Below, one piece after another: positions 1-59,159 of a DNA stretch of 64,000 nucleotides. The notes under the pieces are model-generated. The model made no database searches and was not told the origin of the DNA. It saw only the letters and a program-made list of their open reading frames with translations. Every line of letters begins with the position of its first letter. The stretch's first letter is position 1. Source of the stretch: an uncultured Verrucomicrobiae bacterium (GTDB lineage Bacteria > Verrucomicrobiota > Verrucomicrobiia > Chthoniobacterales > UBA10450); NCBI GenBank assembly GCA_963726745.1, contig CAVSDR010000006.1, positions 224,001 to 288,000 on the forward strand, in the 5' to 3' direction. The position numbers and the translations under genes were made by a program.

Positions 1-2725
1 CGCGGCTCACGTCAGCCACGGTCGGATCGGAGCCGGTGAAATATTCCGCGAGATTCGACTCGCCATCGCCGCTCGCATCGAAGGCCAAAGCGCTCCGCGG
101 ATCGTCCGGCGCGAAGTATTGCGCGCGCCAGCGCTCGACGCCGTTGCCGATCGTCACCTGCACCTCGGCCTCGCCAGTTTGCCCCTGGGTGTCGGTCACC
201 CGCAGGCGCAGGGTGTGGGCGCCATTGGTGAACTGCGTGGAATCGAAAAGCAGGTGCGCGCCGCCAAAGTGGAAGTGGTTTTCGTTGTTCGCATCCGTCC
301 ATCGGAGCACGCCGTCGACCAGGAATTCCCCTTTTACGGTGCTCACATCATCGATCCCGTTCCCGAAAAACTCCGCTGCCATCCCGCTGACTAATTCCCC
401 CGGCAACGGACGCGTGATCTGCGCCACCGGCGGCGCATCTGTGGTCACGTGCACCGTGAAGCTTTGGGTAGCCGCGCCGGCGGAATTCAGCGCGCGCACC
501 GTCACCGGGTAGTCGCCGGGCGCAGACGGCATCCAATTGATCAACCCGCTGGCCGCCTCGATGCTCATCCCCGCCGGGGCACTCGTTAGGCTAAAGGCCG
601 GCGCGGGGTTGCCGCTGGCGGTCGCACGGTAAGAATAGCCGGCCCCTTGGACGCCGCTGGTCGCGGGGCTACTGGTGAAAACCGGCGGCACCGGGTCGCG
701 ATCGAGCACCGTGACTGCAACCGTGCGCGACGTCTCGCCGGGAGCAGAGACCGTGATCGTCGCGTGATCGTCCACGCCATCGGCATCCGCCGCCGCGGCT
801 AGAGTCACCGTCTGCGGCGTGGCGAAATTAGTCGGCGTGAAGGTGAGCATCGCGCCGGCGCTCACGGTCACATCCGGATCGCCCGCACTGCGCGCGACCG
901 TCATCGGCACATTGCCCGCCGGCGCGTTCGCCAGGCGCACGGTAAAGCCGGCGGTCGCGCCTTCATTCATCGTCAGGCTGGCGGTGGAGACGACGATCTG
1001 CGGCTCGTCGTTGTCGATCTCGTCGACCTGCAAGTCGTAGCTCGCGATCCCCGGCGCGACGATGCGGAAGGTCGCGCGGCCGTTTTCCTGGTCGGGATCT
1101 TCCGCGGCGGTGAAGCGCACCGCCTGCGGTACGAAATAATTCGCCGGCGTGAAAGTGAGCATGGCGCCGCTGCTCACCACCAGATCCACATCACCACTCA
1201 CGCGGCTGGTCGTGACCGTGACGTCCGCCGCCGGCGCGGTCGCCAGACGCACATTCACGATGGCCGCGCCGCCTTCGAGGACGTTGAAAGCGGTCGGCTG
1301 CACCAGGAGGTTTTGCGCGGTGCTCGTGCTCGCCAGACGGCGGACGAGCGGGCTGCCGATTCCCTGGTAATAAAGCGCGCCATCCGGCCCGGTGGCGTAA
1401 TCGATCAAACCGCCCACGCCAGTGAGAAACGGCTCCGCGCTGAGCACGCGATTTTGCGCGTCCAGCGTCGCGCGCATTCCCTGGCCAGAAACGTAATCGC
1501 CAAAGAAAAAATTCCCGCGATAAGCCGCCGGGAACGCGGTGCCGTCGTAGAACGTGCCCCCGGCGATGGCTGCGCCACCGTTGCTCCCGAAGGTCGGCGC
1601 CGTGACCGTTCCGCTGCCCGACGAGGCATCCGGACCCGCCTGCACGAAACGAAAGCGCGTGTGATCCAGATCCTCGGAGACGAAGAAGCTGCCGTTAAAA
1701 CTCGCATCGCCCGCGCCGCTGACCACGACTTTCCCGCCGCGACGAAACGGATGCGTGTTCCGATTCAAATTCGTGGTCGTGACTGTGACCACGCCGTTGC
1801 TGCGCACGAGCCCGCCGCTGCTCGCGACCGTGAGCGTCATCGACTGCGCAGTGCCGTAGGCAATCGCCGGCAGGAGATAGCCGGCCGGCTGGTTGTTTTC
1901 CCAATCGTCGTAGCCACCGTGGTCGCCGCGCTGCACCTGGAAAACTTGCTCGTAACCCGGTCCAGAATTGGGCGAAGTCTGGCCGCCGGCGGTGCTCCCG
2001 ACGACGTTCAACCAGAGCGCGCCGGTGCCCGGCTGGAAAGCGAGGGTGAAGGGATTGCGGAAGCCGCGCGCCCAGATGTAATCGTTGTTCGGCCCGGCGC
2101 CGTCGAAGAACGGATTGTCGTTCGGGACGCTGCCGTCGCGCCGGGCCCGGCCGACCTTGGCCGCGAGCGAGGTGAGATCGTCGTCCACCCCGACCTTGCT
2201 CCCGTTGTCGCCGATCGACCAATAGAGCCGGCCATCCGCGCCGATGCCGAGCCCGCCGCCATCGTGGTTCTGGCCGAGGGTAGGCAAATTAGCCAGCAAG
2301 ATGGTGCGCGCGGTGCCGACGTTGCCGTTCGCGGTATAACGAATGATCTGCTGCTGGCTGCTGGAGACGGTGGCAAAGAAATAGACGTAGTGGTTCGTGA
2401 CGAAATCCGGATCGAACGCGATCCCCAGCAGGCCGCATTCGCTGTTCGTGTAGACCGCCTCGGTGATGAAAGGCGTGGCGACCAGCGTGCCCGTGGGCGT
2501 GCCGCTTTGAAAGCCATGCTGCACGATGTAGCAGGCGCCATTTTTTTGCGTGAGGAAGAGCCGCCCAGAGCCATCCGGCGCCCAGGCCATGCTCGTGGTG
2601 TTGGTGAGCGCGCTACTCGAAAGGAAGGTCGATTCCGAGAAAGCCGCGGGGTCCACCGGCGCGCTCCAGACGGACGCGCCCGCCAGGAACAAGAGCCCGA
2701 AGACTTGACCCAGGAGAGGCCTCAC
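1..2725 (-). CDS. Secreted PQQ-dependent glucose/sorbosone dehydrogenase (GSDH)-family beta-propeller protein with C-terminal Calx-beta-like, Ig-like and Big domains; 3' end runs off the window
   Basis: Manual translation from GTG at 2725 (overlaps upstream TGA): signal peptide MRPLLGQVFGLLFLAGASVWS, then MAWAPDGSGRLF, ECGLLGIAFDPDF, NHDGGGLGIGADGRLYWSIGD, DNPF, IWARGFRNPF, YRGNFFFGDY. Two tandem LTFTPxN(Y/F)xxPQxV repeats follow, then Ig-like segments. Absent from the ORF track because it has no stop inside the window. Confidence 0.8.
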   Translation of the reverse strand, partial: MRPLLGQVFGLLFLAGASVWSAPVDPAAFSESTFLSSSALTNTTSMAWAPDGSGRLFLTQKNGACYIVQHGFQSGTPTGTLVATPFITEAVYTNSECGLLGIAFDPDFVTNHYVYFFATVSSSQQQIIRYTANGNVGTARTILLANLPTLGQNHDGGGLGIGADGRLYWSIGDNGSKVGVDDDLTSLAAKVGRARRDGSVPNDNPFFDGAGPNNDYIWARGFRNPFTLAFQPGTGALWLNVVGSTAGGQTSPNSGPGYEQVFQVQRGDHGGYDDWENNQPAGYLLPAIAYGTAQSMTLTVASSGGLVRSNGVVTVTTTNLNRNTHPFRRGGKVVVSGAGDASFNGSFFVSEDLDHTRFRFVQAGPDASSGSGTVTAPTFGSNGGAAIAGGTFYDGTAFPAAYRGNFFFGDYVSGQGMRATLDAQNRVLSAEPFLTGVGGLIDYATGPDGALYYQGIGSPLVRRLASTSTAQNLLVQPTAFNVLEGGAAIVNVRLATAPAADVTVTTSRVSGDVDLVVSSGAMLTFTPANYFVPQAVRFTAAEDPDQENGRATFRIVAPGIASYDLQVDEIDNDEPQIVVSTASLTMNEGATAGFTVRLANAPAGNVPMTVARSAGDPDVTVSAGAMLTFTPTNFATPQTVTLAAAADADGVDDHATITVSAPGETSRTVAVTVLDRDPVPPVFTSSPATSGVQGAGYSYRATASGNPAPAFSLTSAPAGMSIEAASGLINWMPSAPGDYPVTVRALNSAGAATQSFTVHVTTDAPPVAQITRPLPGELVSGMAAEFFGNGIDDVSTVKGEFLVDGVLRWTDANNENHFHFGGAHLLFDSTQFTNGAHTLRLRVTDTQGQTGEAEVQVTIGNGVERWRAQYFAPDDPRSALAFDASGDGESNLAEYFTGSDPTVADVSR

Positions 2726-3810: not shown

Positions 3811-3818
3811 CTTGCTGC

Positions 3819-6362
3819 CTAACGAGTGATGGAAGTCCGGGAACGCGCGGCCAGGAGGACATCGCGCCCGACGAGATAAAGGACCACGCAAAGCACCGCG
3901 AAGGGCAGGAGCGCGAGCAGGTCGGCGTTCGCACCCTGGAAGAAGGGATTGTGCTCCGTCATCCATTCCTCGATCCCGGTGCTGTAAAGCGACAACGCGG
4001 GCACGCCCTGCATGATCGCGATCACGATCCCGGCAAGCGCGCCGCCGGCGATGTAGCCGGAAGCGAGGAGCACGCCGCCGCTCTTGTCGCCTTCCGCGAC
4101 CAGTTCCTCTTCCTGCAGGTCGTGGCCCTTGAATTTCGTGCGCCGCAAATAGCGGTCGACCGCCCAGCGAATCAGCCCGCCGATAAAGATCGGGCTGGAC
4201 GAGGAAAGCGGCAGGTAAACCCCCACGGCAAAGGCGAGCGAAGGAATGCCGCTCATCTCCAGCACAATGGCAATCATGACACCGAGGAGCACGAGGGCCC
4301 ACGGCAATTTGCGGCTCAGGATGCCCTTGATGATGTAGGACATCAGGGTCGCTTTTGGTGCGTCGAATTTCGAGACCGCGCTGCCATCGGGCCGGGTTTT
4401 GCGGGTGCCGTTGATGCCTGGATCGACCAGATAGGTGGCAACGCCTTGATCGTTTACCAGGAAACGCTGCGCTGGGCCGCCGGCGGGGTCGGCGCGTTGC
4501 CAGCTCCGGTAGGTGGCCTTGTCGCCGAGGCCCTGGGTGCCGCTGAGGGTCTCGGTGGCGCCGAGCTCGGAAGTCTTCTCGACGCGCAGGTTTGCCGGAA
4601 AATTGCGCTCGAGTTTGTAGGTCACCCGCCCTTCGCCGTTGACGAGATACTCGGCCGGCTCAAGGCCGGGAGCCGCGGCCGACGACTCGTTAGCCGACAC
4701 ATTGAGCAGGCGGAAATCCTCCGGCGCGGGCTTGATCCCCTCGCTGTAAGGCGGGAGGGAGGCGGCGGTGGCAATCACTGGACCTTGCGTGACCGGAGCA
4801 AAAGTAGTCGCGGGCACGTAGACCGTGGAGGCGTTGTTGAGCACGAGCAGGATGGGGCCGAGCGCGAGCGCGGAAGCGAGCGCGCCGAAGAGGATCGCGA
4901 TCTGTTGATACTTCGGCGTCGCGCCGACGAGGAAGCCGGTCTTCAAATCCTGCGAGGTGGTGCCGCCATTTGAGGCCGCGATGCAAACGATCCCGCCAAT
5001 CGAGAGCGCGGTCACAAAGTAATGCGGCCCGGTCCAGCCGATCGCGAGAAAGGCGAGGCAGGTGAGCAGCAGCGTGGCCACGGTCATGCCGGAAATTGGA
5101 TTCGAGGAAGAACCGATCTCGCCGGTTAAACGGGAGGAGACGGTCACGAAAAGGAAGCCAAAGGCCACGATCAGGAGCGCGCCGATCAGGTTCCACTGCA
5201 GGTGAAGCTGGGGGACGATCATGATCACCGCGAGCAAGCCGATGCAGCCGCCGATGACGAGTTTCATCGAGAGATCCTGGTCGGTCCGCGGTGCTCGCGA
5301 GCTGGCCGCATGGCCGCCGCGCAAGTCGGAGAGGCCGGCTTTCAATCCATGCCAGATGGTCGGGAGCGAACGGAAAAGGCTGATGATCCCGCCCGCGGCG
5401 ACCGCGCCCGCGCCGATGTAGAGCACGTAAGCGCCGCGGATTTGATTCGGCGACATGTCGCCGATCGGGATCGTGCCCGGAGGGATGATCGCGGCCGTGT
5501 GTTCGCCGAAGAACTTGATCGCCGGAATGAGCACGAGGTAGGCAAGCACGCCACCGGCGCACATGATCGAGGCAATGCGCGGGCCGATGATGTAACCGAC
5601 GCCCAACAGCGCAGGCGAGATCTCGGCAGCGATCGAGCCAGCCTTGAACGGCGCGGCAAAGACTTTCTCCGGCGTATCCTTCCAAAGCTTAAACGCGCCC
5701 ATTGCGGCTTGGTAAAGGAAGCCGATACCGAACCCGGTGAAGATGGTTTTGCCGCCGCTGGCGGTCTCTTCGTTATCGGCAGAAGTTGCTGTCTGTTTTC
5801 CCTCGGGATCCTTGGCCGCGGCCGCTTTCAGGACCTCGGCGCAGGCGGTGCCCTCCGGATATTTCAGAATACCGTGCTGATCGACGATGAGCGCGCGCCG
5901 CAGCGGGATCATCATCAGGATGCCGAGCAAACCGCCGAGGACCGCGACCAGCATCACGCGGGTAAGCTCGAGGTCGAAGCCCAGGATCATGATCGCCGGC
6001 ATGGTCACGCCCAGGCCGAAAGCGATCGACTCGCCGGCTGAGCCCGCGGTTTGCACGATGTTATTCTCGAGAATGGTCGCGTCGCGCAGGCCGAACTTCG
6101 ACATCAGCCGAAAGATCGTGATCGAAAGCACGGCCACGGGAATGGACGCGCTTACCGTCAGGCCGACCTTGAGCACGAGATAAAGCGATGAGGCGCCGAA
6201 AACCATCCCGAGGAGCGTGCCGACGATCAACGGGAGGATCGAAAGCTCGCGCATCTGGGTGGAGGCGGAGATGTAGGGCTTGAAGTTTGCCGCCAGCGGG
6301 TTGGTCGGTTTGGACCCGACGATGTCGGGCATTTCGTTCGGCGGATTGGCGGTTGGCGGCAT
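3819..6362 (-). CDS. OPT-family oligopeptide transporter with a soluble insertion
   Basis: [56 protein letters not shown] and [10 protein letters not shown] are OPT motifs; many TM segments. Confidence 0.9.
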
Positions 6363-6553: not shown

Positions 6554-6814
6554 ATGAACAAAGTCCGTTTGGTTGGCGGCGCCTGGTTGGCCGCGGCCCT
6601 AATTTTTTGCCTAACGAGTGCAGAGGCGCAAACAACGCGCCCAGTTCCCGAAACTACCTCCGCGACCCTGCCGGCGAATCAAATTGGCGCAGACTTCGGC
6701 GCGCTCGATCCTGCCGCTCTCGGCCAGCCAGTGCCAGTGCCGGAACCGCTCACGCCCGCGCTGCTCGGCCTGGGCGGGCTCCTGGTCTTCCTGGCTTATC
6801 GGCGGCGGCGGTGA
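6554..6814 (+). CDS. Very small PEP-CTERM (exosortase-targeted) protein
   Basis: Signal peptide ending AEA; C-terminal VPEP + hydrophobic helix + RRRR; good RBS. Confidence 0.75.
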   Translation: MNKVRLVGGAWLAAALIFCLTSAEAQTTRPVPETTSATLPANQIGADFGALDPAALGQPVPVPEPLTPALLGLGGLLVFLAYRRRR

Positions 6815-7504: not shown

Positions 7505-8111
7505 GTGCGCACCAATTATCGCTCCTGTCCCGCGGCCGAGATTGTGCCGGCTAATCCTGGGGAGCTGCTGGAAATGGCGGAGATTTTCGGACGCGATGCG
7601 CCGGTCGAGATCGACCTCGGCTGCGGCGATGGCGCCTTCCTGGTTGCCCTCGCGGAGCGCGCGCCGGAACGCGATTTTCTCGGGGTCGAGCGCCTTGCCG
7701 GCCGCTTCCGCGGAACCAGCCGCAAGATCGGCGACGCCGACGTTGCCGAATGCGCGCATCCTCCGCGCCGAAATCGAAGCGCTGCTCGCGCTGCTTTTGC
7801 CAGCCGCCTCAGTCGACGTCTTCTACCTCCTGTTTCCCGATCCTTGGCCGAAGCGGCGGCATCATGTGCGCCGGACTTTCAACGCCGAGTTTCTGCGCGG
7901 AGTCTGGCGCGCGCTCCGGCCGGACGGCCTCCTGCGCGTGGCCACCGACGATGCGGACTACGCCCGCGCGATGACGCAGGTGATTGCCAACGCGGAGGGC
8001 TTCGTTGCGGAAGCCGGGTTGCCTCCGTTGCCGCCCACGAGCTTTGAAGAGCGCTTCAGCGGGAAGGAAATCTACCGCTTCGGGCTGCGGAAGATCTTGC
8101 TGTCTAAATAG
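7505..8111 (+). CDS. trmB: tRNA (guanine-N7)-methyltransferase, frameshifted near 7740
   Basis: VEIDLGCGDG and FLGVER in one frame; LFPDPWPKRRHHVRR, RVATDDADY and TSFEERF in the next frame. Start approximate. Confidence 0.85.
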
Positions 8112-10352
8112 CCGGCTCGCTTCCCAGTGCTCACGGTAAAAGCGCACCGTCACCGCTCCGGTTTCATCCTGCCGGAAAAGCTCGATTCCGCGTGCCTTGA
8201 CCTCCTCGACCCATCCATCTGGCAGCCGTTCGTTCTCCGGGAAGTCGCGCGACGTCGCGATGATTGCCGCTGGTTGCACCGCCTCCAGAAATTCCGTCGT
8301 GCCCGACGGCGCAGCATGATGCTGTCCTTTCACCAGGAGATCGCTCCGCAGGTCCGCCCCACTCTCTAGCAAGACGCGCTCGGTCGCCTCGCCGCTGTCG
8401 GACATCAGGAGCACGCGCCACTTTTGCGCAATCGTTAGGCGGATCACCAGGGCCATGTCGTCCGCCGTTTTGCCGGCAAAACCGGCCGGCGGGAAAAGAA
8501 TTTCCGCACGCACCTGCGGGCCGATCAAGAACTCGTTAGGCGCGCTGAGTGTCCTTCGACGGTGCTTCTCCGCAAGGAGCGCACGATGCAGCGGCGAGCG
8601 GTCGGGCGCGGCGTTATCCAGCCACTCGCGCGGCTGAAAAATCCGCAGCAACGTGGCCGCGCCGCCGAGGTGCGCGGCATCGCCATGCGTAAGCACGAGG
8701 CCGTCCAGGCGATTGACTCCCCGTGAGCGCAAATAGCCGCGCACGACCAGGCGGGCGTCACGTTCGCTGCCGGTGTCGACCAGCCAATCGCGCCCGCGCG
8801 TTTTCAGGTGCGTGCACGCGCCCGCGCCGAGATCGAGCACGGTCATTTCCGCGAGCGCACCGTGTGGCCAACGCGGCGCGCCCAGGTAGATGTGGCCCGC
8901 AGGCGCGCGTGCAAAGAGACCGACCGCCCCGAGAATGCCGGCGGCCAGGCACCAGTTCGCGTTGTTAAAGACCAGGGTCAACGCCGGTGCCACCGGCAAA
9001 ACCAGGAGCGACATCAGGCCAACCGCGAGCACCAAGAACGCAAGCGGAACGACCACCAGATTCGCCAGGAGCGAGACCGGCGTGACGATGTAGAAATACG
9101 GCAGAATGAGCGGGAGCGACCCGATCCAGGCGGCCAGCGAAACCGTGGCGCCGCCGGCGAGCGCGCGCCACAGCCAGACGCCGCCGCGTTGCCGCAAACT
9201 GTAAAGTGAAGGCGGCAGGAAGGGATCGGGCGCGCCCCGACGTTCGAGCGCGAGGTAAAGCGGCCGCGCGAAAAGCATGATCGCGATCACGACCGCAAAC
9301 GATAGTTGGAAGCCAGTGGAGAAAAGCTGGTTCGGATCCCACGCGAGCACCAGGACCGCCGCCGCGGCCACGCTGTTCCCGGAGAAGACCCGCCGCTCGA
9401 TGAAGTAGCCGCCTAACAAAACCGCGGCCATGAGCGCGGCGCGAATGCTCGAGGCTCCCAGGCCGGTGATCGCTGCATAGAAAAAAAGCGCGGGAATGAT
9501 CGCCGCGATCGCCCAGCGGCGCGGGAGCCGGGCCGCGCGCAAAATCATCCAGAGGAGCTGCGCGAGGATGGCGACATTTAATCCCGAGACCGCAAAAAGA
9601 TGGAGCGTGCCGGTTTGCTGGAATTGCTCCTGGATTTCATCGGGCGTCTCCCCATTGGCCCCCAGGACCATCCCGCTGATGACGCCCCGCAAGTCCGGCG
9701 CATCCTCCAACCCGCGGCCGAGCGCGGCCTGCATCCACGCGCGCGAGCGCTGGGCCGCGCGGAGAATCTTCGAGCCGCGCTCGTGCGCGAGGATGCGGCC
9801 GCTCTCGGGATTGCGCGAGCCTAACGAGTGATAAATGTCGTGCCGCGCGAGGTAGGCCCGCAAATCGAACTCGCCCGGATTGCGCGGCGGCGGGACCGGC
9901 TGGATTACGCCAAAGAGCTGCAGCTCGTCGCCGTAGACCGGCGTGCCCGGCCAACGAGCGGTGATCGTGCCGCTGATCGGAATGGTGCGGTCGTCGAACG
10001 CGACCGATTCTACCTGGATTTGAAAGGAAGCCGTGCCGCGCGGGGAAATGCGCGGCTCGCTCACGACCACTCCACGCACCGCAACCGCACGTCGCTGCTC
10101 GCCGAGGAGACGCGCGAGGCGGCGCCCGGGCGAATCCGCCTGCCGTTGCGCGTGCACGCTGGCGAAGGCCGCGGCCACCGCGACCAGGGTGAGGAGCGTG
10201 CTTCCGCGCCAGAACGCTGCGGCCGCGGCCCCCAGAAAAATAGCCAGCCAGATGGCGGCGTGCCCGCCGACTTCGCCCAGCAGGATGCCGAGCACGGCGG
10301 CGAGCGCGAGGCCCACGAAGGGTTGCCGCGGCCACGCCTCCGAGCGCTTCAT
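8072..10352 (-). CDS. comEC: ComEC/Rec2 DNA uptake channel (DUF4131 + Competence + metallo-beta-lactamase domains); probable frameshift near 8115
   Basis: RNPGEFD, GTLHLFAVSGLNV, GFQLSF, LVLTHGDAAHLGG, LVKGQHH. The ORF-track C-terminus runs antisense through trmB; a one-base shift near 8115 gives ...ASGYLDSKIFRSPKR* ending at 8072. Confidence 0.88.
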
Positions 10353-10358
10353 TGCTCG

Positions 10359-10827
10359 TTAGGCAAAAACCACCGCGTCGAGCAGGACATCGTGCCCTTC
10401 GCGCGGGATCGACGCCCGCATCTGGCAGGCAAACCCGAGCCCGACTTTGAACGCACCGCGCGCCCGACCGCCGAGCAAGCGATCATAAAAACCGCCGCCG
10501 CGTCCGAGGCGCTGGCCGTCGCGGGTAAAGGCCAGCCCTGGCACCAGCACCAGCTCCGGAACGAACGGCAGCTCGAGCTCCGCTTCCTCCCGCAGGGTCG
10601 CAGGCACCACGAAGGCCGTCTTGGCCTACTGCCAGGGTCGCGATTGCCGGCTCCGTGCTCATGGGCGAAAACGTCAGGACACGCTCGGCCGCCTGCCACG
10701 CGGGCAACGCCAGAACTTGCCGGCAAATTTCCGCCGAGGCGCGCGTGCGCTCGGTCGCGGAGAGGGCGCGAAGTTGCGCCAGGATCTCGGCGCGGAGGGT
10801 TTCCTTGGCTTCCCGCGCGGCAGACAC
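10359..10827 (-). CDS. ygfA: 5-formyltetrahydrofolate cyclo-ligase, frameshifted near 10620
   Basis: N-terminal KETLR..ILAQLRALS and MSTEP in one frame; LVLVPGLAFTRDGQRLGRGGGFYDRLL in another. Confidence 0.85.
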
Positions 10828-14122: not shown

Positions 14123-14142
14123 GTCGGTCCCCAAAACGCTGC

Positions 14143-30800: not shown

Positions 30801-32128
<1,328 letters not shown>

Positions 32129-35771: not shown

Positions 35772-35789
35772 CGAAATCTGCTCTCGCGC

Positions 35790-46643: not shown

Positions 46644-48163
46644 AACACGTAGGAATTGTCGGCGGCGGCTTGGGTGGATTGGCGGCGGCTTGCACGCTGG
46701 CGGCGCGCGGGCATGCCGTGACCGTTTTCGAGAAAAACGAGTGGCTCGGCGGCAAGGCCGCGGTCCTGGAACAGGATGGCTACCGCTTCGATATGGGGCC
46801 GACGATCCTGACCGTGCCCTCCGTTCTCCGGCGCATCTTCGCCGAGGCTGGGCGCAAGCTCGAGGACGAGCTTCCTCTCGTTAGGCTGGATCCGCAGTGG
46901 CGCTGCTTCTTTGACGATGGCAACCAGCTCGACCTGGTCGCGAGCGTGGCCCGGATGCGCGAAGTGCTGGCTGATTTCTCCGGTGCGCCGACCGCCGAGG
47001 GCTACGCGAAGTTCATCGACCACGCGGAACGCCTCCATCGCATCTCCTCGCAGTGGTTTTTCTGGCGCCCAGTCGGCGGCCTGCGCGACATGTTTAACGC
47101 GCGCAACATGACCCAGAGCGGCACGCTTTCCGACGTCTTCGCGATGCGCATGGGCCGGAGTGTGGCCAGCACGGTGCGCTCCTACGTGCCGGATGCGCGA
47201 GTCGCGCAGATGGTCGACCACTTCACCCAATATGTCGGCTCCGCGCCGGACACATCGCCCGCCGTTCTTTGCGGCATCGCGCACATGCAGACCGAGGAAG
47301 GCATCTGGTATCCACGCGGCGGCACCGCGGCCATTCCGCGCGCGCTCGAGAAATTAGCCAGCGAGTTGGGAGTGAAAATCCGCCTCGGCGTGGACGTCGC
47401 GCGGATCACACACACCAGTGGCCAGGTCACCGGCGTGGAGCTGACAGACGGCGAAAACGTGAAGCTCGACGCGGTTGTTTCCAACAGCGACGCGGTCCGC
47501 ACGCACCGGGAGTTGTTAGGCGGCGTGAAAAAATTCGAGCGCCGCCGGCGTTACGAGCCGGCCTGCTCCGGGGTCGTGCTTTACCTCGGCCTGCGCAAAC
47601 GCCAGCCGGCGTTCCTCCATCACAATTTCGTCTTCTCCGCCGATCCGCACGAGGAGTTCGATTACATCTATCGCCGCGGCGAACCCGCGCCCGACCCGAC
47701 CTGTTACGTCTGCGCGCCTGCGATCACCGAGCCGGAGGTCGCGCCGCCCGGCGGCGAAGCGCTCTATATTCTCGTGCACACGCCCTATCTCCGACCCGGT
47801 CAGGATTGGCAGAAAATGCTGCCTGATTATCGGCGAACGATTTTGGAAAAAATCCGGCGCACCACCGGCGTGGATCTCGAGAGCGAAATCGTAACCGAGA
47901 GCGCGCTCACCCCGCAGGACATCCATGAGCGCTACCGCGTGCTCAACGGCGCGATCTACGGCCTCGCGAGTCACGGCCGCTGGCTCGGCGCTTTCAAGCC
48001 AAACAATCGCAGCGCCGACGTGCGCGGCCTTTACCTCGCCGGTGGCGCGGCGCATCCGGGACCGGGCATGCCGATGGTTTTGATGTCCGGTTGGATCGCG
48101 GCCGATGCGCTCGATCAAGACCAGCCCGCGGTCCAAAAACCCGATCTCGTGACGGCTGCATGA
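46640..48163 (+). CDS. crtP: CrtI-family diapolycopene/diaponeurosporene oxygenase (CrtP/CrtNb-like)
   Basis: VGGGLGGL, FDMGPTILT, QYVGS.P..SPAVL..IAHMQ.EEGIWY, GAIYG, HPGPGMPMVLMSG. Confidence 0.78.
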   Translation: MKHVGIVGGGLGGLAAACTLAARGHAVTVFEKNEWLGGKAAVLEQDGYRFDMGPTILTVPSVLRRIFAEAGRKLEDELPLVRLDPQWRCFFDDGNQLDLVASVARMREVLADFSGAPTAEGYAKFIDHAERLHRISSQWFFWRPVGGLRDMFNARNMTQSGTLSDVFAMRMGRSVASTVRSYVPDARVAQMVDHFTQYVGSAPDTSPAVLCGIAHMQTEEGIWYPRGGTAAIPRALEKLASELGVKIRLGVDVARITHTSGQVTGVELTDGENVKLDAVVSNSDAVRTHRELLGGVKKFERRRRYEPACSGVVLYLGLRKRQPAFLHHNFVFSADPHEEFDYIYRRGEPAPDPTCYVCAPAITEPEVAPPGGEALYILVHTPYLRPGQDWQKMLPDYRRTILEKIRRTTGVDLESEIVTESALTPQDIHERYRVLNGAIYGLASHGRWLGAFKPNNRSADVRGLYLAGGAAHPGPGMPMVLMSGWIAADALDQDQPAVQKPDLVTAA

Positions 48164-48978
48164 TCGCGCGCACCTCCGCGGTCGGTCGCGGTCCGGCCGG
48201 CAGGAATCGCCGCACTGGCGCAGTCGCGCCGCGCATCTCGCCCAGACTCCTGCGGCTTTTTCAGCGCTATGCGCAAGGTTATGTGCGCCGGCATTTTCAT
48301 TCCGTGCGGCTGCTGCGCGGCGGCGCGCCGGCACGATGTGTCGACTACCCACTGGTGGTCTACCTGAATCACGCCTCTTGGTGGGATCCGCTGCTATGCC
48401 TGCTGCTGGCGCAGCGTTTCTTTCCGGCGCGCCAATCCTACGGGCCAATCGAAGACGACTCGTTAGGGCGTTATCGCTTCTTTGAGAAGCTGGGCTTCTT
48501 TGGCGTGGAAGGAAACCGCTCGCCGGCGCGCGTCGATTTTCTCCGAATCGCCGACCGGATTCTCGCGACGGAGCGCAACGCGCTTTGGCTCACGCCGCAG
48601 GCACGCTTCGTCGACAGCCGGGTGCGCCCGCTACATTTCCGGCGCGGGTTGGGTCACCTGGCGGCGCGCACTGACCGGGCCGCCTTCCTGCCGCTGGCGC
48701 TGGAATATGTTTTCTGGGAAGAGCGCCAGCCGGAGGTGCTGGTGGGCTTTGGTGAACCGGTGATTTTTTCCGGTGAACAACGGCTTGGCCTCGGTGAAAC
48801 GACGCGCCTTTTCGAGACGGCGCTCGCCACGGTGCAGGATCACTTGGCCGCGGCCGCGCAACGCCGGCAGCCGGCGGAATGGGACCGCCTCGTCGTCGGC
48901 CGCGCAACGATCAATCCCTTCTACGATCTCTGGCGCCGCCTGCGCGGCGAGCGCTCGCTGGCGCATTCCGACTTGTGA
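48160..48978 (+). CDS. PlsC-like acyltransferase, probable carotenoid-glycoside acyltransferase
   Basis: NHASWWD (HxxxxD) motif, PQA, PLALEY; located in the carotenoid cluster. Confidence 0.75.
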   Translation: MIARTSAVGRGPAGRNRRTGAVAPRISPRLLRLFQRYAQGYVRRHFHSVRLLRGGAPARCVDYPLVVYLNHASWWDPLLCLLLAQRFFPARQSYGPIEDDSLGRYRFFEKLGFFGVEGNRSPARVDFLRIADRILATERNALWLTPQARFVDSRVRPLHFRRGLGHLAARTDRAAFLPLALEYVFWEERQPEVLVGFGEPVIFSGEQRLGLGETTRLFETALATVQDHLAAAAQRRQPAEWDRLVVGRATINPFYDLWRRLRGERSLAHSDL

Positions 48979-50100
48979 GCGCGTTCCTCTTTGTCGTGCT
49001 CGCGTGCGCCGCCTGGCCCGCGCTGCTTTTCCTGCGCAACCTCTCCGTTTTCCGTCCGCCTGCGTCCGGCGAGGAAATAGCCGACAACCTCTCGATCCTG
49101 ATCCCGGCGCGGGACGAGGCGCGCAACATCCGCGCGGCGGTCGAGGCTGCGCTCGCCAATGCCGGCGCCGAGGTGCTGGTGCTCGACGATGGCTCGGAGG
49201 ATGCGACCCCGGAAATCGTGGCCGAAATGACCCGCCGCGAGCCGCGTCTGCGTCTGCTCCGCGGTGAAACTTTGCCAGCAGGCTGGTGCGGCAAAAACTG
49301 GGCCTGCGCGCAGCTCGCGGCCGCGGCCACCCGTCCGATTTTACTCTTCGCGGATGCCGACGTGCGCCTCGCTCCCGGCGCCGGCGCGGCCCTGGGCCGC
49401 TGGCTGCGCCTAACGAGAGCTGATCTCGGCAGCGGGATTCCCCGGCAGGAGATGGAGAGCTTCGCGGAGCGCTTGCTCGTGCCGCTGATTCACTTCGTGC
49501 TCCTTGGCTTCCTGCCGTTGCGCCGGATGCGCGCCTCGCCACATCCCGCGTATGCCACCGGCTGCGGGCAGCTGATGGTCGCGGACGCGGCGGCCTACCG
49601 CGCCACCGGCGGGCACGGCGCGATCCGTTCCCGCATCCACGAAGGCCTCGCACTGCCGCGGCTCTTCCGCGAGCGAGGGCTTCCGCACGGATTTGTTTGA
49701 TGCCACGCCATGGGCGCTTTGCCGGATGTACCGAAGCGACGCGGAGACCTGGCGCGGTTTTGGCAAGAATACGCACGAAGGCCTCGGCGCGCCCACGCGG
49801 ATCGGTCCGTTTACCTTGATCCTCGGCCTTGGGCAGGTGGCGCCGTTTGCGCTTCTCCCCTTCACGCCATGGCTTTCGGGCTGGCAAATAGCCGGCATTT
49901 TCATCGCGATCGTCGCCGCGCTGCTGCCGCGGGTGGTCGCGGCGCGCCGGTTCGGCCAACCGTTCCGTGCGGTCTGGCTGCATCCGCTCGGCGTCGCCAG
50001 CTTGCTGGCTCTCCAATGGTGGGGCCTCGTGCGCTACCTGCGCGGCCGCCCTTCCTCCTGGAAAGGCCGCAGCTATCTAAGCGCGCCGACCGCAGCCTAA
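48975..50100 (+). CDS. crtQ: GT2 glycosyltransferase (CrtQ-like), frameshift near 49678
   Basis: SILIPARDE, DDGSEDAT, GWCGKNWAC, FADADV, CRMY..TWRGFGKN, SWKGR. Confidence 0.75.
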
Positions 50101-50769
50101 CAAGCGATCGCGTGGCGCTGGCAAACGCCCGAAAGCAGGTCCCAAAGCGATTGGAGCACGCGGTCGACCGCGGCTTTGACCGCGCCGGCGTTCTCCTCGG
50201 TCACGTGCTCGCGCAGCATCTCGCGCTCGGCCGCGGCATGCTCGCGGTCGGCTTCGAGGTGCACGCTGAAATACTCGTAGCTCTTCGCGTCGGTCTGGCC
50301 GTAGTGCTTCTTCAAGCCATCGATCTTCGACTCCGAGACGCTCGGGATCTGGCTCTCGTAGGCGTAAAGCGCAGCCAGGCCCTCGGCCGTGGCCCCGTGG
50401 TGGCAGATGTCGCGGAAAGTCCCGATGAGACCGCAGGTTTCCGGCTGCTTCGCGGCGCCCTGCACCTCTTCGCGGCTCGCGCCTAACGAGTCGGCAAATT
50501 GCAGCCAAAGTTCCGGATGATTCGGGGTGCCGGCTTCCTCGTCGATCAAGTTTTGCAGGACCTGCCGGCGGGTCGGCTGGTCTTCGCAATGCGCGTGCAC
50601 CGCCGAGAGATAGGTCGGGAAGGCGGCCACGTGGTGGTAGTACTGCTGCGGCGTAATCGCGCAGCGCCGCGGCGCTGAGCTCGCCGCGGGTCCAGGCGAG
50701 GTAAAAGGGATGGGTCAGGAGATGTTTCGCGGCGATCTGCTGGTCGATGGAATCGAGGATCTGGCTCAT
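50097..50769 (-). CDS. CADD/PqqC-like heme-oxygenase-fold protein (putative folate/pABA synthesis), frameshift near 50647
   Basis: HLLTHPFYLAWTRGELS, YYHHVAAFP, NLIDEE..NHPELW, LYAYESQIP, YFSVHLEADREH. Confidence 0.82.
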
Positions 50770-50912
50770 GGGAAAGATGGAAGAGTTGAGGGTTGAGCCG
50801 CGAGTCTCCCCGAAGAACTCCACCGCGAAAAGAAAATCTTTTCCCGGCCGACTGCTCGTTAGGCGGCGGCTTTTGCCTTGCCAGCCGGACGGCCCGGGAA
50901 AGAATAGCCGGC

Positions 50913-52348: not shown

Positions 52349-52704
52349 AGCGGTGCCTCCCTGTCGCGCTGCTCTGGCTCCTGATCTTGCCGGCTAAAAC
52401 CCCCGCGCAGGAAATCACCCTCGAGGAGATCACCGTGGAAACGACTTCGCCGCTTGAGCGGCCGCTCGGAAAAATAGTCGACACTTTGACGGCGCGCCTG
52501 CAGCTCGAGGGCGAAACCCGGCGCGCGCTCGAGCTGCGCGCGCTCCACCAAAATTCGCTCACGACTTTGCTTGAGCTGAGCGCCTACTCCCCGGTCTCGT
52601 TAGGCGCGAGCGACCGGCGGGTGGACACTTTTTTCCGGGAGAATGCGATGCGGCCGGACTTGAACCCACGCGAAGAGGCTTCCCTCTTTCCCCGCAGGCG
52701 CTAG
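52345..52704 (+). CDS. Hypothetical secreted protein
   Basis: ATGA overlap with the SET gene; signal peptide MKRCLPVALLWLLILPAKTPA. Confidence 0.55.
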   Translation: MKRCLPVALLWLLILPAKTPAQEITLEEITVETTSPLERPLGKIVDTLTARLQLEGETRRALELRALHQNSLTTLLELSAYSPVSLGASDRRVDTFFRENAMRPDLNPREEASLFPRRR

Positions 52705-54464: not shown

Positions 54465-55504
54465 AGCGGAAGTTCGCGCTCCCGCCGGGATTGCCCGCGG
54501 CCAAGGCGCAATTCATCGCGCCGATGAAGCCGCGCCTGCTGGAGACGCCGCCAACAGAAGGAGACTGGCTTTACGAATTGAAGTTCGACGGCATCCGCCT
54601 GGTGGCGGTGAAGCAGGGCGAGAAAGTGCTGCTTATTTCACGCAACGAAAACGATCTCTCGGGACGCTTTGCGGAGATCGCGGAAGCGGTCGCGAAGTTG
54701 CCGCCTAACGACTGCGTGCTCGATGGCGAAGTGGTCGCGCTCGATGCCGCGGGACGCTCGTCCTTCCAGCTGTTGCAGGGCCGGGAACTTCCCGGCGGAA
54801 AGGCGAGCCCGCTCCTCTTTTACGCCTTCGACTTGCTGCAGGCGGAAGGGCGTTCGCTCCTCCGGCTCCCGCTGGAGCAACGGAAGGAGTTGCTGGCTAA
54901 ACTCTGCGCGCGCGCGAAGGATCCGATTCGTTTCTCCGGCGCCATCGGGACGGACGCGGAGCCGTTGCTCGAGGAAGTGAAGCGTCGCGGGCTCGAAGGC
55001 TTGATCGGCAAACGGCGCGACTCGGTCTACGAGCCGGATCGCCGCAGCGGCGCCTGGATCAAACTCAAGGTGCTGCACGAGCAGGAATTCGTCATCGGCG
55101 GTTACACTCCGCCCGCGGGCGCGCGCCAGCACTTTGGCGCGCTCCTGGTCGGCTATTACGAAGGGCAGCGGCTCCATTTTGCTGGCAAAGTCGGCACCGG
55201 ATTCAACACCAAGCTGCTGGCCTCGCTCCATGCGCAGCTGCGGAAAGAAGCGCGCGACGATTGCCCTTTCACCGACCTGCCCTCGAAACAGGGCGGCGCC
55301 TGGGTGCAGGGAATCACGCCCGCGATGATGCGGCGGATCCACTGGGTGAACCCTGCGCTGGTGGCACAGGTGAAATTTGCCGAGTGGACCCGCGAGGCGA
55401 AGCTGCGGCAGCCGGTTTTCCTGGGGTTGCGCGAGGATAAAGACGCCCGCGAAGTGGTGCGCGAAGACGGGCCGCGCTTGGCAGCGAGAAAGGGGCGTGG
55501 ATAG
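54461..55504 (+). CDS. ligD: LigD-type ATP-dependent NHEJ DNA ligase domain
   Basis: YELKFDGIR, LDGEVV, YAFDLL, EGLIGKR, WIKLK, GKVGTGF, LRQPVFLGLREDK; GTG 54461 overlaps the upstream TGA. Confidence 0.88.
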   Translation: MKRKFALPPGLPAAKAQFIAPMKPRLLETPPTEGDWLYELKFDGIRLVAVKQGEKVLLISRNENDLSGRFAEIAEAVAKLPPNDCVLDGEVVALDAAGRSSFQLLQGRELPGGKASPLLFYAFDLLQAEGRSLLRLPLEQRKELLAKLCARAKDPIRFSGAIGTDAEPLLEEVKRRGLEGLIGKRRDSVYEPDRRSGAWIKLKVLHEQEFVIGGYTPPAGARQHFGALLVGYYEGQRLHFAGKVGTGFNTKLLASLHAQLRKEARDDCPFTDLPSKQGGAWVQGITPAMMRRIHWVNPALVAQVKFAEWTREAKLRQPVFLGLREDKDAREVVREDGPRLAARKGRG

Positions 55505-55929: not shown

Positions 55930-56636
55930 AGTTCGCCGTGATCCAATTCCCGGGGTCGAATTGCGACCAGGATTGCATCGCCGCGCTCCACGGCCTCGCA
56001 GGGGCGAGCGCGGAGTTCGTCTGGCATAAGGAAACCTCGGTCGCGGGCTACGATGCGATCGTGATCCCGGGCGGGTTTTCGTATGGCGATTACCTGCGCT
56101 GCGGCGCGATCGCGCGGTTCTCGCCGATCATGCGCGCGGTCATGGAAGCGGCCCGCGCGGGCAAGCTCGTCATCGGCGTGTGCAACGGCTTCCAGATTCT
56201 CTGCGAGGCAGGCCTGCTGCCGGGCGCGCTGGTGCGGAATCGCTCGCTCCATTTTGTCTGCGAAATGGCCACCCTGCGCGTGGAGGTGGAGCGCTCGGCT
56301 TTCACTCTTGGGCTGGAAAAAGGTCGCCTGCTGCGCCTGCCGATCGCCCATGGCGAAGGCTCTTATTTTGCCGACGCCGCCACGCTCGCAGAGTTAAACG
56401 AAAACCGCCAGGTGGTCCTGCGCTACGTGGATGCGTGCGGGGAGGCCACTGCAGAGGCGAACCCGAACGGCTCGCTCGAGAACATTGCCGGCATCTCGAA
56501 TCGCGCCGGCAACGTCTTCGGCCTGATGCCGCACCCCGACCGCGCTTGCGAGGAGCGCCTGGGAAGCGCGGATGGAGCGGCCATTTTCCGCTCGATGATG
56601 CGCTCCATCACCGAGACGCCGGCGCGCGCCGCCTAA
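55926..56636 (+). CDS. purQ: FGAM synthase glutaminase subunit PurQ
   Basis: FPGSNCD, PGGFSYGDYLRCGAIA, GVCNGFQIL, AHGEG, NPNGS, LMPHP. Confidence 0.96.
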   Translation: MKFAVIQFPGSNCDQDCIAALHGLAGASAEFVWHKETSVAGYDAIVIPGGFSYGDYLRCGAIARFSPIMRAVMEAARAGKLVIGVCNGFQILCEAGLLPGALVRNRSLHFVCEMATLRVEVERSAFTLGLEKGRLLRLPIAHGEGSYFADAATLAELNENRQVVLRYVDACGEATAEANPNGSLENIAGISNRAGNVFGLMPHPDRACEERLGSADGAAIFRSMMRSITETPARAA

Positions 56637-56642
56637 CGAGTC

Positions 56643-57989: not shown

Positions 57990-59159
57990 TCAGCCGGCAA
58001 CTCGGACCGCGCGCTTCTTGTCGAGCCGGAGGATTTGCCCGGGGCGCAGGGCCAGCGTTGCCTTGGCGTCGGGTAATTTCTCGCCGTCGAGTTGCACGCT
58101 CCCCTGCTCGATCAGCCGTCGGGCTTCGGTGCGTGATTTGGGGATGGCGAAACTCTGCGCGTAGGCCGCGGCGACGATCGTGACGGCGTCCGCCGGCTCG
58201 CTTTGGAACAACGGCAGCTCCGCCTCACTCAGGCGCCTTTCGCTGAAGCGCGCGCTCCAGTCACCCGCGGCTTTCTCTCCCGCCTCCGCGGAATGATAGA
58301 GGGCGACGATCTCCGCCCCGAGCTGCTTCTTGGCTTCAAGGGGATGCAAATCAGCCGGCAACTTCCGCAGGAGAATGAGATCGTAATACCGCGCCATGAG
58401 CTCGTCCGAAATGCTCATGATTTTCCCGAACATGTCGTTAGGCGACTCGTGCAGCCCGATGTAATTGCCGAGGCTTTTGCTCATCTTCTTGAACCCATCG
58501 AGCCCTTCCAGGATCGGGAGCAGGAGGACCACTTGCGGGGGTTTCCCCTCGCCTTTCTGGAGATCGCGGCCGACGAGAATATTGAAGAGCTGATCGGTTC
58601 CGCCGAGTTCGACGTCGGCCTCGATCATAACCGAATCCCAGCCCTGCATGATCGGGTATTGGATTTCGTGCGCGTGGATCGGCTGCTCCTGGTCGAGGCG
58701 CGCGCGGAAGTCCTCGCGCTGCAGCATCTGCTGGAGGGTGACCATGCTGTTGAGGCGGATGACGTCGCCGAAGTTCATCCGCCCGAACCATTCCCCGTTG
58801 AAAACCACCCGTGTGCGCGCCGGGTCGAGGATCTTGAAGGCTTGCTCGCGGTAGGTCTCGGCGTTGGCCAGGACCTGCTCGCGCGAAAGCTGCGGACGCG
58901 TGACCGAGCGGCCGCTGGGGTCGCCGATCATCGCGGTGTAATCGCCGATGATAAGGATGCCTTCGTGCCCTAGATCCTGGAATTGCCGAAGCTTCCGCAA
59001 GGCCAGCGCGTGGCCGAGATGGAGGTCGGGGCTGGTCGGATCGGCCCCGAGCTTGACCCGCAGCGGACGGCCTAACGAGAGCTTGGCCCGGAGTTCCTCC
59101 CGGCTGATGACCTGGGCCGTGCCCTGCAGCAGTTGGTCGAGAGACTCGTCGGATTGCAT
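57990..59159 (-). CDS. tyrS: Tyrosine--tRNA ligase
   Basis: GADPTSPDLHLGH, IGDPSGR, QGWDS, GGTDQ, KMSKS, C-terminal S4 domain. Confidence 0.97.
   Translation of the reverse strand: MQSDESLDQLLQGTAQVISREELRAKLSLGRPLRVKLGADPTSPDLHLGHALALRKLRQFQDLGHEGILIIGDYTAMIGDPSGRSVTRPQLSREQVLANAETYREQAFKILDPARTRVVFNGEWFGRMNFGDVIRLNSMVTLQQMLQREDFRARLDQEQPIHAHEIQYPIMQGWDSVMIEADVELGGTDQLFNILVGRDLQKGEGKPPQVVLLLPILEGLDGFKKMSKSLGNYIGLHESPNDMFGKIMSISDELMARYYDLILLRKLPADLHPLEAKKQLGAEIVALYHSAEAGEKAAGDWSARFSERRLSEAELPLFQSEPADAVTIVAAAYAQSFAIPKSRTEARRLIEQGSVQLDGEKLPDAKATLALRPGQILRLDKKRAVRVAG

Follow-up and report, generated by a model that had tools for sequence, protein, structure and literature searches.

A short, asymmetric word, TCGTTAGGC, recurs at about 1000 copies per genome in a family of uncultured soil Verrucomicrobia, in genes as well as in spacers and against the codon habits of its host, its genome-wide core being T-Y-GTTAGG-C. 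The word is real, operates at the DNA level, is strand-symmetric and is more evenly spaced than chance, and its best explanation in our view, to which we would give a probability of roughly 45%, is a DNA uptake-type tag of the DUS or USS kind. No published description of either its core, TCGTTAGG, or of a second word found in the same family, TGTCGATCTT, was found in the literature.

The source genome (3.41 Mb) contains 1514 copies of TCGTTAGG, where a third-order Markov model expects 54, and the enrichment persists under codon-preserving shuffling, with 1045 copies seen inside the 2587 predicted genes against 41±5 after the synonymous shuffle. The 10-mer CTCGTTAGGC is the most frequent in that genome, with 820 copies (594 in genes against 7.5 by synonymous shuffle), its density being 1 per 4.2 kb, as compared with 1 per 2.6 kb in the window, i.e., the whole 64,000-nucleotide stretch of DNA that was analysed. 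The 25 exact copies (14 plus, 11 minus) listed for the window in the preliminary description were all recovered at their coordinates, dinucleotide shuffles giving 0.08 on average and never more than 2, as were all 18 of its one-mismatch copies; a nineteenth, at 11845 (CTCGTTTGGC), had been missed. The 10-mer, which had been taken as the constrained unit, is indeed enriched, but the constraint lies on TCGTTAGG(C), the 5' flank being weaker, and position 1 of the 10-mer tolerates G or T too. The fraction of T at position -2 is 0.93 in the source genome and 0.80 in another genome of the family, G066, and at the Y position of the source genome C outnumbers T by 1346 to 127. Perfect 9-mers in the source genome (1312) exceed the sum of all 27 single-mismatch variants (1123), and near-misses at the strict positions number 73, against 131 expected. 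The copies in the window, assigned by our own gene caller (which wrongly put the one at 12850 in an antisense ORF), are given below together with comEC.

583..590, plus: word copy (CTCGTTAGGC), antisense in a minus-strand gene, x-L-T
3818..3825, minus: word copy, its TAG the stop codon of an OPT transporter gene (3819-6449, minus)
6610..6617, minus: word copy, intergenic (own gene caller)
7809..10352, minus: comEC, product of 847 aa with the domains Competence and DUF4131
8432..8439, plus: word copy (ATCGTTAGGC) in comEC, antisense, x-L-T
8533..8540, plus: word copy in comEC, antisense, P-N-E/D, common to 1 of 3 aligned congeners
9820..9827, minus: word copy in comEC, sense, S-L-G
10356..10363, plus: word copy, its antisense TAA terminating a gene (10359-10610, minus)
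12850..12857, plus: word copy encoding A-S-L-G-Q of an ABC1 kinase (gcc tcg tta ggc cag)
14142..14149, minus: word copy, its TAG the stop codon of an amino-acid permease gene (14143-15753, minus)
15768..15775, plus: word copy (TTCGTTAGGC), intergenic
17679..17686, minus: word copy (GTCGTTAGGC), S-L-G in the gene of an HTH_18 regulator, common to 3 of 5 aligned congeners
21768..21775, minus: word copy where xseA is split, its TAA the first stop after the frameshift
26463..29266, plus: run of seven copies (26463, 27134, 27339, 27944, 28577, 29007, 29259), S-L-G, x-V-R, intergenic, and TAA stop of a release-factor gene (29262-30284, minus)
30022..30029, plus: word copy (GTCGTTAGGC), antisense in the release-factor gene, P-N-E/D
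31377..31384, minus: word copy, S-L-G in enolase
35767..35774, minus: word copy (TTCGTTAGGC), its TAA terminating a gene (34962-35771, plus)
38301..38771, minus: word copies at 38301 and 38764, both antisense to a gene for an ABC-transporter ATPase, x-L-T and P-N-E/D
41159..41166, plus: word copy (TTCGTTAGGC), antisense in an FAD-oxidase gene
45455..46885, both strands: word copies at 45455 (minus) and 46878 (plus), within genes for aldehyde dehydrogenase and amine oxidase
48460..48467, plus: word copy (CTCGTTAGGG), intergenic
49409..50863, both strands: word copies at 49409 (minus), 50482 (minus) and 50856 (plus)
52597..52604, plus: word copy, intergenic
54704..54711, minus: word copy (GTCGTTAGGC), antisense in an ATP-dependent DNA ligase gene
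56632..56639, minus: word copy, its TAA the stop codon of purQ (55926-56636, plus)
58435..59078, both strands: two copies (58435 plus, 59071 minus), Trp/Tyr-tRNA synthetase gene

The proposal in the preliminary description that the DNA word, and not the protein, is what selection or drive acts on is fully supported by the codon shuffle, by flank preferences that are the same in 239 intergenic and 1066 coding copies, and by substitutions in purH. These copies arise by substitution: across 30 aligned purH genes they differ by substitutions with zero indels, including changes of amino acid (PTK to PNE, SLK to SLG), and word positions turn over among congeners, 4 of 16 aligned comparisons being shared. 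About 70% of copies lie within ordinary genes, where all four stop-free frames are occupied (S-L-G 451, x-L-T 266, P-N-E/D 225, x-V-R 98) with no transcription bias (549 sense, 491 antisense). The core encodes 451 of the 718 S-L-G tripeptides, and the word has pushed up the frequency of the tripeptides it encodes (S-L-G to 1.57x and P-N-E to 2.4x expectation), while the codons described as rare are so in long genes (TTA 2.8% and CTA 1.1% of Leu codons, AGG 1.4% of Arg codons). Intergenic occurrence holds, with this gene caller, for the copies at 6610, 15768, 26463, 27339, 48460 and 52597, but not for the one originally cited, at 50855, which sits in a predicted 142-aa ORF without a Pfam match.

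Replichore polarity is absent, the G-rich strand carrying 769 copies and the C-rich strand 738 (51.0%, p = 0.44), and contigs whose skew is monotonic over 1 Mb show no orientation bias either. Short gaps between copies are rare (21 of up to 100 bp, where 66 are expected, and 34 of 100-200 bp, where 63 are), those of 400-1600 bp exceed expectation, and 16 are longer than 12.8 kb, as compared with an expected 4.7. Loci for O-antigen/EPS, exosortase, giant surface proteins and pilins lie in the largest of these gaps, and surface-polysaccharide islands lack the word. Inverted pairs no more than 100 bp apart (6 and 4) are below chance, with no terminator-type pairing, convergent spacers are not richer in the word than divergent ones, and no helically phased AT-rich flank was seen beside it.

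All 24 congeners were enriched in the word, as were most of the 36 genera covered in the family (UBA10450), against none of 16 genomes from other families of the order and none of 149 genomes sampled from other Verrucomicrobiota. The word is family-wide with lineage-specific flanks, its density ranging from ~4 to ~1350 per Mb (more than 100-fold), and some species keep only sparse relics. In one subclade it is replaced or joined by the unrelated second word, which saturates that subclade, and some genomes are dense in both, such as G066, where in a 400-kb sample one word occurs every 550 bp and the other every 1230 bp; to our knowledge, two unrelated dense words in one genome have no precedent among uptake sequences. 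Moreover, YGTTAGGC is equally hyper-abundant in Gemmatimonadaceae, which belong to an unrelated soil phylum, being enriched in five Gemmatimonad genomes, where it is strand-symmetric, occurs at 1 per 0.66-3.5 kb and has the identical 8-nt core with the same excess of C over T at Y, although position -2 is unconstrained there whereas the Chthoniobacterales family demands T. The second word has just 4 copies in 76 kb of Gemmatimonad flanks, with no enrichment evident. The shared core weakens any 'self only' function, a transferred or shared reader being needed, and along with the second word it complicates a simple 'self-tag' reading.

The genomic signatures of the word closely resemble those of DUS and USS. 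The Pasteurellaceae USS (Hin-type AAGTGCGGT, Apl-type ACAAGCGGT) likewise have a 9-bp non-palindromic core with weaker flanks and occur on both strands, in hundreds or thousands of copies. According to PMC1626085, perfect USS copies exceed all single-mismatch variants, as here, and H. ducreyi is in a comparable state, with sparse relics alone; according to PMC2817400, DUS/USS-encoded tripeptides are about doubled. In these accounts USS also arise by mutation and not by copying, and form two types on two subclades of one family. The two USS types, however, differ at 3 of 9 positions, whereas the two words here have just TCGNT in common and can both be dense in one genome; unlike USS, the word has neither a helically phased AT-rich flank nor a concentration in terminators, and it belongs to a different phylum. 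Neisseriaceae DUS (GCCGTCTGAA and its dialects, read by the minor pilin ComP) are similar in their 10- to 12-nt length, strict core and family-wide distribution, and their dialects resemble the genus-level flank variation seen here (C vs T at position -1), but the word lacks their inverted-repeat pairs and its density varies more than 100-fold in the family. The study bioRxiv 10.1101/2025.10.24.684340 places about half of DUS/USS within terminators, often as inverted pairs, and describes DUS as depleted in variable or acquired DNA, a further likeness to the word.

If the word is an uptake tag, a putative DNA-binding component of the type IV pilus/ComEA/ComEC pathway would favour word-bearing double-stranded DNA, word-carrying fragments of relatives would be taken up and recombined more often, and each mutation improving a near-match would spread over time (by molecular drive, possibly with selection), so that the word would accumulate where proteins tolerate it, in four frames, stop codons and spacers. 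We infer that the reader would be situated within the uptake machinery and that accumulation would proceed via transformation. The comEC product is the inner-membrane DNA channel of transformation, one part of the machinery that such a tag would feed, and the transformation genes of the source genome include those for ComEC, DprA, an HHH_3 small ORF, three secretins, at least 16 prepilins and PilT. Unlike in the case of DUS, no receptor was found, the ComP_DUS domain being below cut-off in all 15 genomes (the source genome and 14 others), with sub-threshold matches occurring in the word-less G063 too, and a FimT-like minor pilin showed no pattern with the word. The word-poor genera g22 and g39 retain ComEC and PilT, so that a visible loss of competence genes does not account for the disappearance of the word. 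We know of no report of transformation in the family UBA10450, a literature search having given nothing relevant.

It is possible, if on the improbable side, that another DNA-binding machine (nucleoid organisation, repair or gene-conversion bias, or self/non-self defence marking) reads the word for a purpose unrelated to uptake. The frame, strand, shuffle, spacing and flank signatures demand merely a sequence-specific reader, and such a machine would suit the two independent words coexisting in G066, the one core in two phyla and the absence of a link between word loss and loss of ComEC or PilT; the second word also occurs 44 times in direct pairs at 15-16 bp spacing, which look like cooperative protein binding, and the shortage of near-misses fits conversion towards the perfect word. 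Island depletion and origin by substitution, however, fit uptake equally well, and we know of no nucleoid or repair system by which a non-palindromic 9-mer becomes 25- to 1000-fold enriched in genes against codon bias. Cyanobacterial HIP1 (GCGATCGC) is suspected of being maintained or amplified for a non-uptake reason. HIP1 and other highly iterated palindromes are, like the word, hyper-abundant, short, lineage-specific and present in coding DNA in all frames, with a reader that is not known (PMC4390886). They are, however, palindromes with methylase sites, whereas the word is asymmetric and the one C5 methylase here does not co-vary with it. This sole C5 methylase has an ortholog in just 1 of 15 genomes tested, and in none of the very word-rich G066, G302, G303 and G304; as to Vsr-type repair, no Vsr was found.

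Among the rivals tested, neither these two nor integron sites, Chi or an assembly artefact received support. The integron attC/attI core is GTTRRRY (canonical GTTAGGC), with which the strict 7-nt core of the word is identical, and two Xer-like recombinases are encoded in the genome; a mobile recombination system could also explain the word in two soil phyla, as expected were it a half-site for an Xer/integron-type tyrosine recombinase, spread as secondary recombination or capture sites. We regard this as improbable, since no integron integrase was found at cut-off (best 80 bits vs 265), no attC-like pairing of inverse core and core was seen, most copies lie in ordinary genes and come from point substitution, and GTTRRRY lacks the T-Y that is constrained on the 5' side of the core.

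A Chi-like hotspot modulating a helicase-nuclease (RecBCD, AddAB or AdnAB) is disfavoured as very improbable: while this short and asymmetric word is over-represented and spread evenly, with about one copy every 2 kb, and Chi words differ between taxa as the words here do between related clades, there is no orientation bias to the G-rich strand, RecC was not found in the genome (94.7% complete; one weak PDDEXK_1 match in a 470-aa ORF), and the enrichment and codon-usage override far exceed what is known for Chi. An error in base calling or long-read assembly, arising at a modified site, is refuted as the source of the word itself by its enrichment in more than 100 other family genomes, many of them assemblies of 100-800 contigs, and in the five Gemmatimonad genomes, and by its respect for reading frames and conserved peptides, although frameshifts that break several genes (xseA, ahcY and those for the ABC1 kinase and an aminotransferase) do suggest residual long-read indel errors in the assembly.

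The repetition of the 10-mer CTCGTTAGGC is real, and it is stronger than was stated in the preliminary description. All 25 exact copies listed there for the window were recovered at their coordinates (14 on the plus strand and 11 on the minus strand), against a mean of 0.08 and a maximum of 2 in dinucleotide shuffles of the window, and the 18 one-mismatch sites were likewise all found, together with an overlooked one at 11845, giving 44 sites with at most one mismatch where 3.3 are expected. In the genome to which the window belongs (G000; 3.41 Mb in 7 contigs, 64% G+C, 94.7% complete; the window is C6:224001-288000) CTCGTTAGGC is the top-ranking 10-mer, with 820 copies. The constrained core, TCGTTAGG, occurs 1514 times where a third-order Markov model predicts 54, and is usually followed on its 3' side by C, which yields the 9-mer TCGTTAGGC (1312 copies), of which TTGTTAGGC is a tolerated variant.

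This word, hereafter word 1 (T-Y-GTTAGG-C), is intolerant of change in GTTAG, the 15 single variants of which sum to 73 copies vs 131 expected under the same model; at the C of TCG a T is accepted (39-fold enriched) but G and A are not, and constraint is looser at the final G, the final C and base 1 of the 10-mer. Perfect 9-mers are more numerous than all 27 of their single-mismatch variants taken together (1123). Upstream, W is preferred at -5, S at -4 and -3, A and not C at -2, and C and not A at -1, equally in 239 fully intergenic and 1066 coding copies, so that these flanks are part of a DNA signal and not of codons. Conservation ends at about 14 nt, and word 1 is therefore not a fragment of a longer repeat.

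Within genes (2587 from a simple and crude codon-usage caller, 82% of G000 being coding), the earlier proposal that the DNA word itself is under selection holds up under codon-preserving shuffling: 1045 copies of TCGTTAGG were observed vs 41±5 in 30 within-gene synonymous shuffles, and 594 of CTCGTTAGGC vs 7.5±2.7. Codons that are rare in long genes (TTA, 2.8% of Leu; CTA, 1.1% of Leu; AGG, 1.4% of Arg) lie inside word 1 in 16%, 18% and 8% of their occurrences, respectively, and TCGTTAGG spells 451 of the 718 S-L-G tripeptides and, on its complement, 142 of the 231 P-N-E tripeptides. These two tripeptides occur at 1.57 and 2.4 times the frequency predicted from amino-acid composition (permutations of both, 0.56-1.71 times), from which it follows that word 1 has altered both codons and proteins.

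All four stop-free frames are occupied by word 1, while the other two contain TAG or TAA, so that shifted or spurious ORFs often end at copies, misleading gene callers. At most 184 of the 1514 copies double as the stop codon of a gene, an upper bound from our own caller, since two of the eight such sites in the window are split-gene artefacts: that at 12850 is actually the A-S-L-G-Q of an ABC1 kinase, and that at 21768 coincides with an xseA frameshift. According to the same caller, stop usage in G000 (TAG 916, TGA 862, TAA 808) is unusual at 64% G+C; word 1 accounts for part of this skew through those 184 stops, and caller errors may be responsible for some of it. Frameshifts split several housekeeping genes, in the window xseA (20732-22083), the ABC1 kinase (12460-14122) and an aminotransferase (25698-27229), and elsewhere ahcY (G000:C5:210899-212330), which suggests residual indel errors in a long-read assembly.

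Replichore polarity, which the preliminary description had named as the mark of a KOPS- or Chi-like role, was not found in G000, the G-rich strand carrying 769 copies vs 738 on the C-rich strand (p = 0.44), and the balance persists on contigs whose cumulative skew is monotonic for about 1 Mb. Relative to genes, 549 copies are sense and 491 antisense. Density in spacers (0.50-0.58/kb) is about 1.4 times that in coding DNA (0.37-0.38/kb), with no difference found between convergent (0.56/kb), divergent (0.58/kb) and tandem spacers. Close neighbours are avoided (gaps of up to 100 bp, 21 vs 66 expected; gaps of 100-200 bp, 34 vs 63), and gaps of 400-1600 bp are in excess, as are those above 12.8 kb (16 vs 4.7). 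A search of G000 for terminator-like inverted pairs found none, there being 10 inverted pairs within 100 bp.

The long word-free gaps were characterized by annotating 112 of the 141 predicted proteins in 13 of the 16 gaps above 12.8 kb and in the word-poor end of contig C5. They hold an O-antigen/EPS island (C7:60-95 kb, 59% G+C), exosortase, WecG and AbiEii genes, giant secreted (surface) and TPR proteins, and a minor-pilin cluster. The density of word 1 is 0.30/kb in the lowest codon-usage quintile of genes and 0.40-0.43/kb in the middle quintiles. Three minor-pilin-like genes (248, 140 and 227 aa) were noted at G000:C3:1032975-1034820 (L154:10578-12420), in a 13.6-kb word-free stretch.

Alignment of window bases 1-20000 to five congeners (65-88% nucleotide identity) showed word 1 retained in only 4 of 16 site comparisons, and orthologous sites without it spell the same residues differently, e.g., as TCCCTCGG. 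In an alignment of 30 purH genes, copies of word 1 and of a second word, TGTCGATCTT (word 2), fall at lineage-specific columns without indels, with amino-acid changes at some of them (PTK to PNE, SLK to SLG, RLL to RLT). Both alignments indicate that copies originate by substitution and turn over.

Outside G000, all 24 of the other genomes of the genus that were compared are enriched for TCGTTAGGC (138-2412 copies vs 28-118 for the reversed control). In a sample of 120 further genomes from 36 genera of the family most are enriched for word 1, with a maximum of 4336 copies in 3.2 Mb (G089), and g22, g39 and g49 are the three genera showing no enrichment. These ranges draw in part on unpublished genomes: g18 is represented by G042 alone and g29 by G053 alone, G046 is one of eight g22 genomes, and G001 and G008 supply g1 rows of the genus comparison. 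No enrichment of TCGTTAGGC was found in 16 genomes from 15 other families of the order, which have 1-19 copies each, nor of YGTTAGGC in 149 genomes from 51 other families of the phylum, where it is mostly far below control. Relatives can be more than 100-fold apart in density, the word-poor G002 and G048 having sparse copies only.

A search for dialect words revealed no enriched word in the sample of G079 and no strong one in G027 or G030, both from other families. In a 251-kb sample of word-less G063 (g39) it returned only tandem heptamers and two weak candidates, GAATTAGGAA (13 copies) and GTCATCCCGAGC (about 20 copies), both far sparser than words 1 and 2. We know of no cultured member of the word-bearing family; Brevifollis gellanilyticus, from another Verrucomicrobial family, was considered as a cultured model and rejected, its enrichment being only about 2-fold (926 vs 471). 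In G028, from another family of the order and otherwise without word 1, copies are clustered on one strand at about 500-bp spacing, and these clusters could reflect either acquisition from the word-bearing family or repetition of a gene:

G028, contig C7, 94047-96651: cluster of word 1
G028, contig C2, 640583-643004: cluster of word 1
G028, contig C13: cluster of word 1
G028, contig C21: cluster of word 1

Word 2 has a narrower range. In a 288-kb sample of G073 (g49) word 1 is absent and TGTCGATCTT reaches 70 copies, 37-fold over expectation; in the family sample it peaks in G066, with 4653 copies in 2.9 Mb. It is dense in g21, g23, g25, g27, g29, g30, g32, g38, g42, g46, g47, g49 and g50, and at background in g1, g19, g34, g41 and others, with 22 copies in G000 vs 10.6 expected. 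On a single-gene (purH) tree of 30 genomes, midpoint-rooted and with 88/84 support for its basal split, every genus rich in word 2 falls within one of two clades, and word 1 is represented in both. In 400 kb of G066 word 2 is found once per 550 bp and word 1 once per 1230 bp, each strand-symmetric, and no fixed mutual arrangement of the two was found there. The words overlap in TCGNT only, and at -1 word 1 prefers T in G066 and C in our genus. G066 also contains 44 direct head-to-tail pairs of TGTCGATCTT at 15-16 bp spacing (loci L123-L142), an arrangement that suggests adjacent binding of two protein units; no such direct pairs of word 1 were found in G000.

The core of word 1 recurs in a second phylum. 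The ABC1-kinase motif ASLGQVH, written with word 1 and run as a probe over one genome per species, matched 84 stretches, and the 80 listed comprise 41 from Chthoniobacterales/Verrucomicrobi* MAGs, 14 from Gemmatimonad* MAGs and 25 others. Among the matches listed, the 3-kb flanks hold 76 further copies in 234 kb at Verrucomicrobial loci, 36 in 76 kb at Gemmatimonad loci and 3 in about 133 kb at the 25 others. Five Gemmatimonad genomes have 1903-8443 copies of YGTTAGGC vs 90-641 in the control, and no enrichment was found in the other phyla checked; the comparison behind this result, which also took in Brevifollis gellanilyticus, includes the unpublished G311. Sequence logos constrain Y-GTTAGG-C only in the Gemmatimonads, the Chthoniobacterales family adding T at -2. 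In a comparison of the G000 proteome with 373 kb of Gemmatimonad DNA, made in search of recent inter-phylum transfer, no near-identical gene was found among 147 matches (median identity 37%, maximum 77%). That one YGTTAGGC reader, whether an uptake receptor or some other DNA-scanning machine, moved between Gemmatimonadota and this family, making such tags modular, transferable, cross-phylum traits of DNA exchange, seems to us unlikely; if true, two unrelated and very abundant soil groups would share a common DNA tag, and TGTCGATCTT would show that the family is able to swap or stack tags.

As to mechanism, an uptake-type tag is the best-supported explanation of word 1, to which we assign, from the genomic patterns described, a probability of roughly 45%; such a tag would accumulate via biased uptake and recombination. 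The window itself contains a gene of the transformation machinery:

Window 7809-10352, minus strand: ComEC

G000 further encodes DprA, a small HHH_3 ORF, three secretins, at least 16 prepilin-type proteins and PilT; judging by control genomes, the same genes are common in non-competent bacteria too. Across the family ComEC is present in 115 of 121 genomes and PilT scores over the cut-off in 118 of 121, word-poor genera included, and neither therefore correlates with word 1. An additional ORF with a prepilin N-methylation motif (window 22094-22954, minus strand; motif match 22709-22786) was missed by the caller and overlaps the end of glgB. As a candidate receptor, a FimT-like minor pilin proved uninformative, the best match being in word-less G063 and those elsewhere covering the N-terminal helix only; sub-threshold matches to the DUS receptor domain ComP_DUS also occur in G063.

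The resemblance to the uptake sequences of Neisseriaceae (DUS) and Pasteurellaceae (USS) is extensive. Word 1 is a short non-palindromic word with hundreds to thousands of copies in genes and spacers, in near-equal orientations and without replichore polarity, depleted in acquired or diversifying DNA, and family-wide with dialects or types that track subclades (on the purH tree only, basal split 88/84). As described in PMC1626085 and PMC2817400, known uptake sequences similarly show more perfect than mismatched copies, a mutational origin, two subclade-specific types, decayed relics in some species, encoded tripeptides that are about doubled, and absence from genes without relatives. Unlike DUS and USS, word 1 lacks inverted pairs in terminators and no ComP-type receptor was found for it, ComP_DUS (PF16732) exceeding the cut-off in 0 of 15 genomes searched, including G000. 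Also without precedent among known uptake sequences are the presence of two unrelated words within a family, and even within a single genome, the more than 100-fold range of density among relatives, and the recurrence of the 8-nt core in a second phylum. According to a preprint, uptake-enhancing sequences were as of October 2025 described only for Neisseriaceae and Pasteurellaceae, both Proteobacteria living on animal hosts (bioRxiv 10.1101/2025.10.24.684340). Our literature search found no paper describing either word as a bacterial genome feature, word 1 and its parts appearing only as primers and similar, and nothing relevant on DNA uptake sequences in Verrucomicrobia or competence in Udaeobacter. 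New here is the full genomic signature of such a tag in an uncultured soil Verrucomicrobiota family; if the words are uptake tags, self-preferring natural transformation would count among the major forces acting on abundant soil lineages, and the contrasts between rich and poor relatives, word 1 and word 2, and the two phyla would offer a comparative route to the receptor.

Close behind the uptake tag in probability is a reader of word 1 unrelated to uptake, which would have to act across the whole genome and be powerful enough to change codons and amino acids alike. C5 methylation and Vsr-type repair found no support as alternatives: the single C5 methylase shows no co-variation with word 1, its ortholog being present, among 15 genomes, only in the congener G013, and Vsr was not found in the 94.7% complete G000. 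The gene in question encodes a 540-aa C5 cytosine methylase (G000:C5:212447-214066; L156:12447-14066) and adjoins metK, ahcY and a small PD-(D/E)XK nuclease gene. A Chi-type role is opposed by the lack of leading-strand orientation bias, RecC not being found in the 94.7% complete genome, where the only PDDEXK_1 match is weak. The core GTTAGGC fits the integron attC/attI consensus, GTTRRRY, an identity that, on the unlikely reading of a reader shared across phyla, could link cassette capture to tagged DNA; word 1 as integron sites was nevertheless rejected, with no inverse-core pairing and no IntI over the cut-off in G000. A HIP-type palindrome is dismissed by the asymmetry of word 1 and the C5 methylase not co-varying, and a REP/MITE-type repeat by conservation over at most about 14 nt, about 70% of copies being coding, and origin by substitution.

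Whether or not uptake is involved, both words are usable as taxon markers for binning, flag foreign DNA inside these genomes and confound gene callers because TAG and TAA sit in two frames. Repeats of another kind were also seen, in long tandem arrays of short units: in G000 the hexamer GCCAAC (about 145 overlapping 12-mers) and repeats of the CCGACT type, and tandem heptamer arrays of TCACCGT and GATCGGT in G063 (loci L049 and L052).
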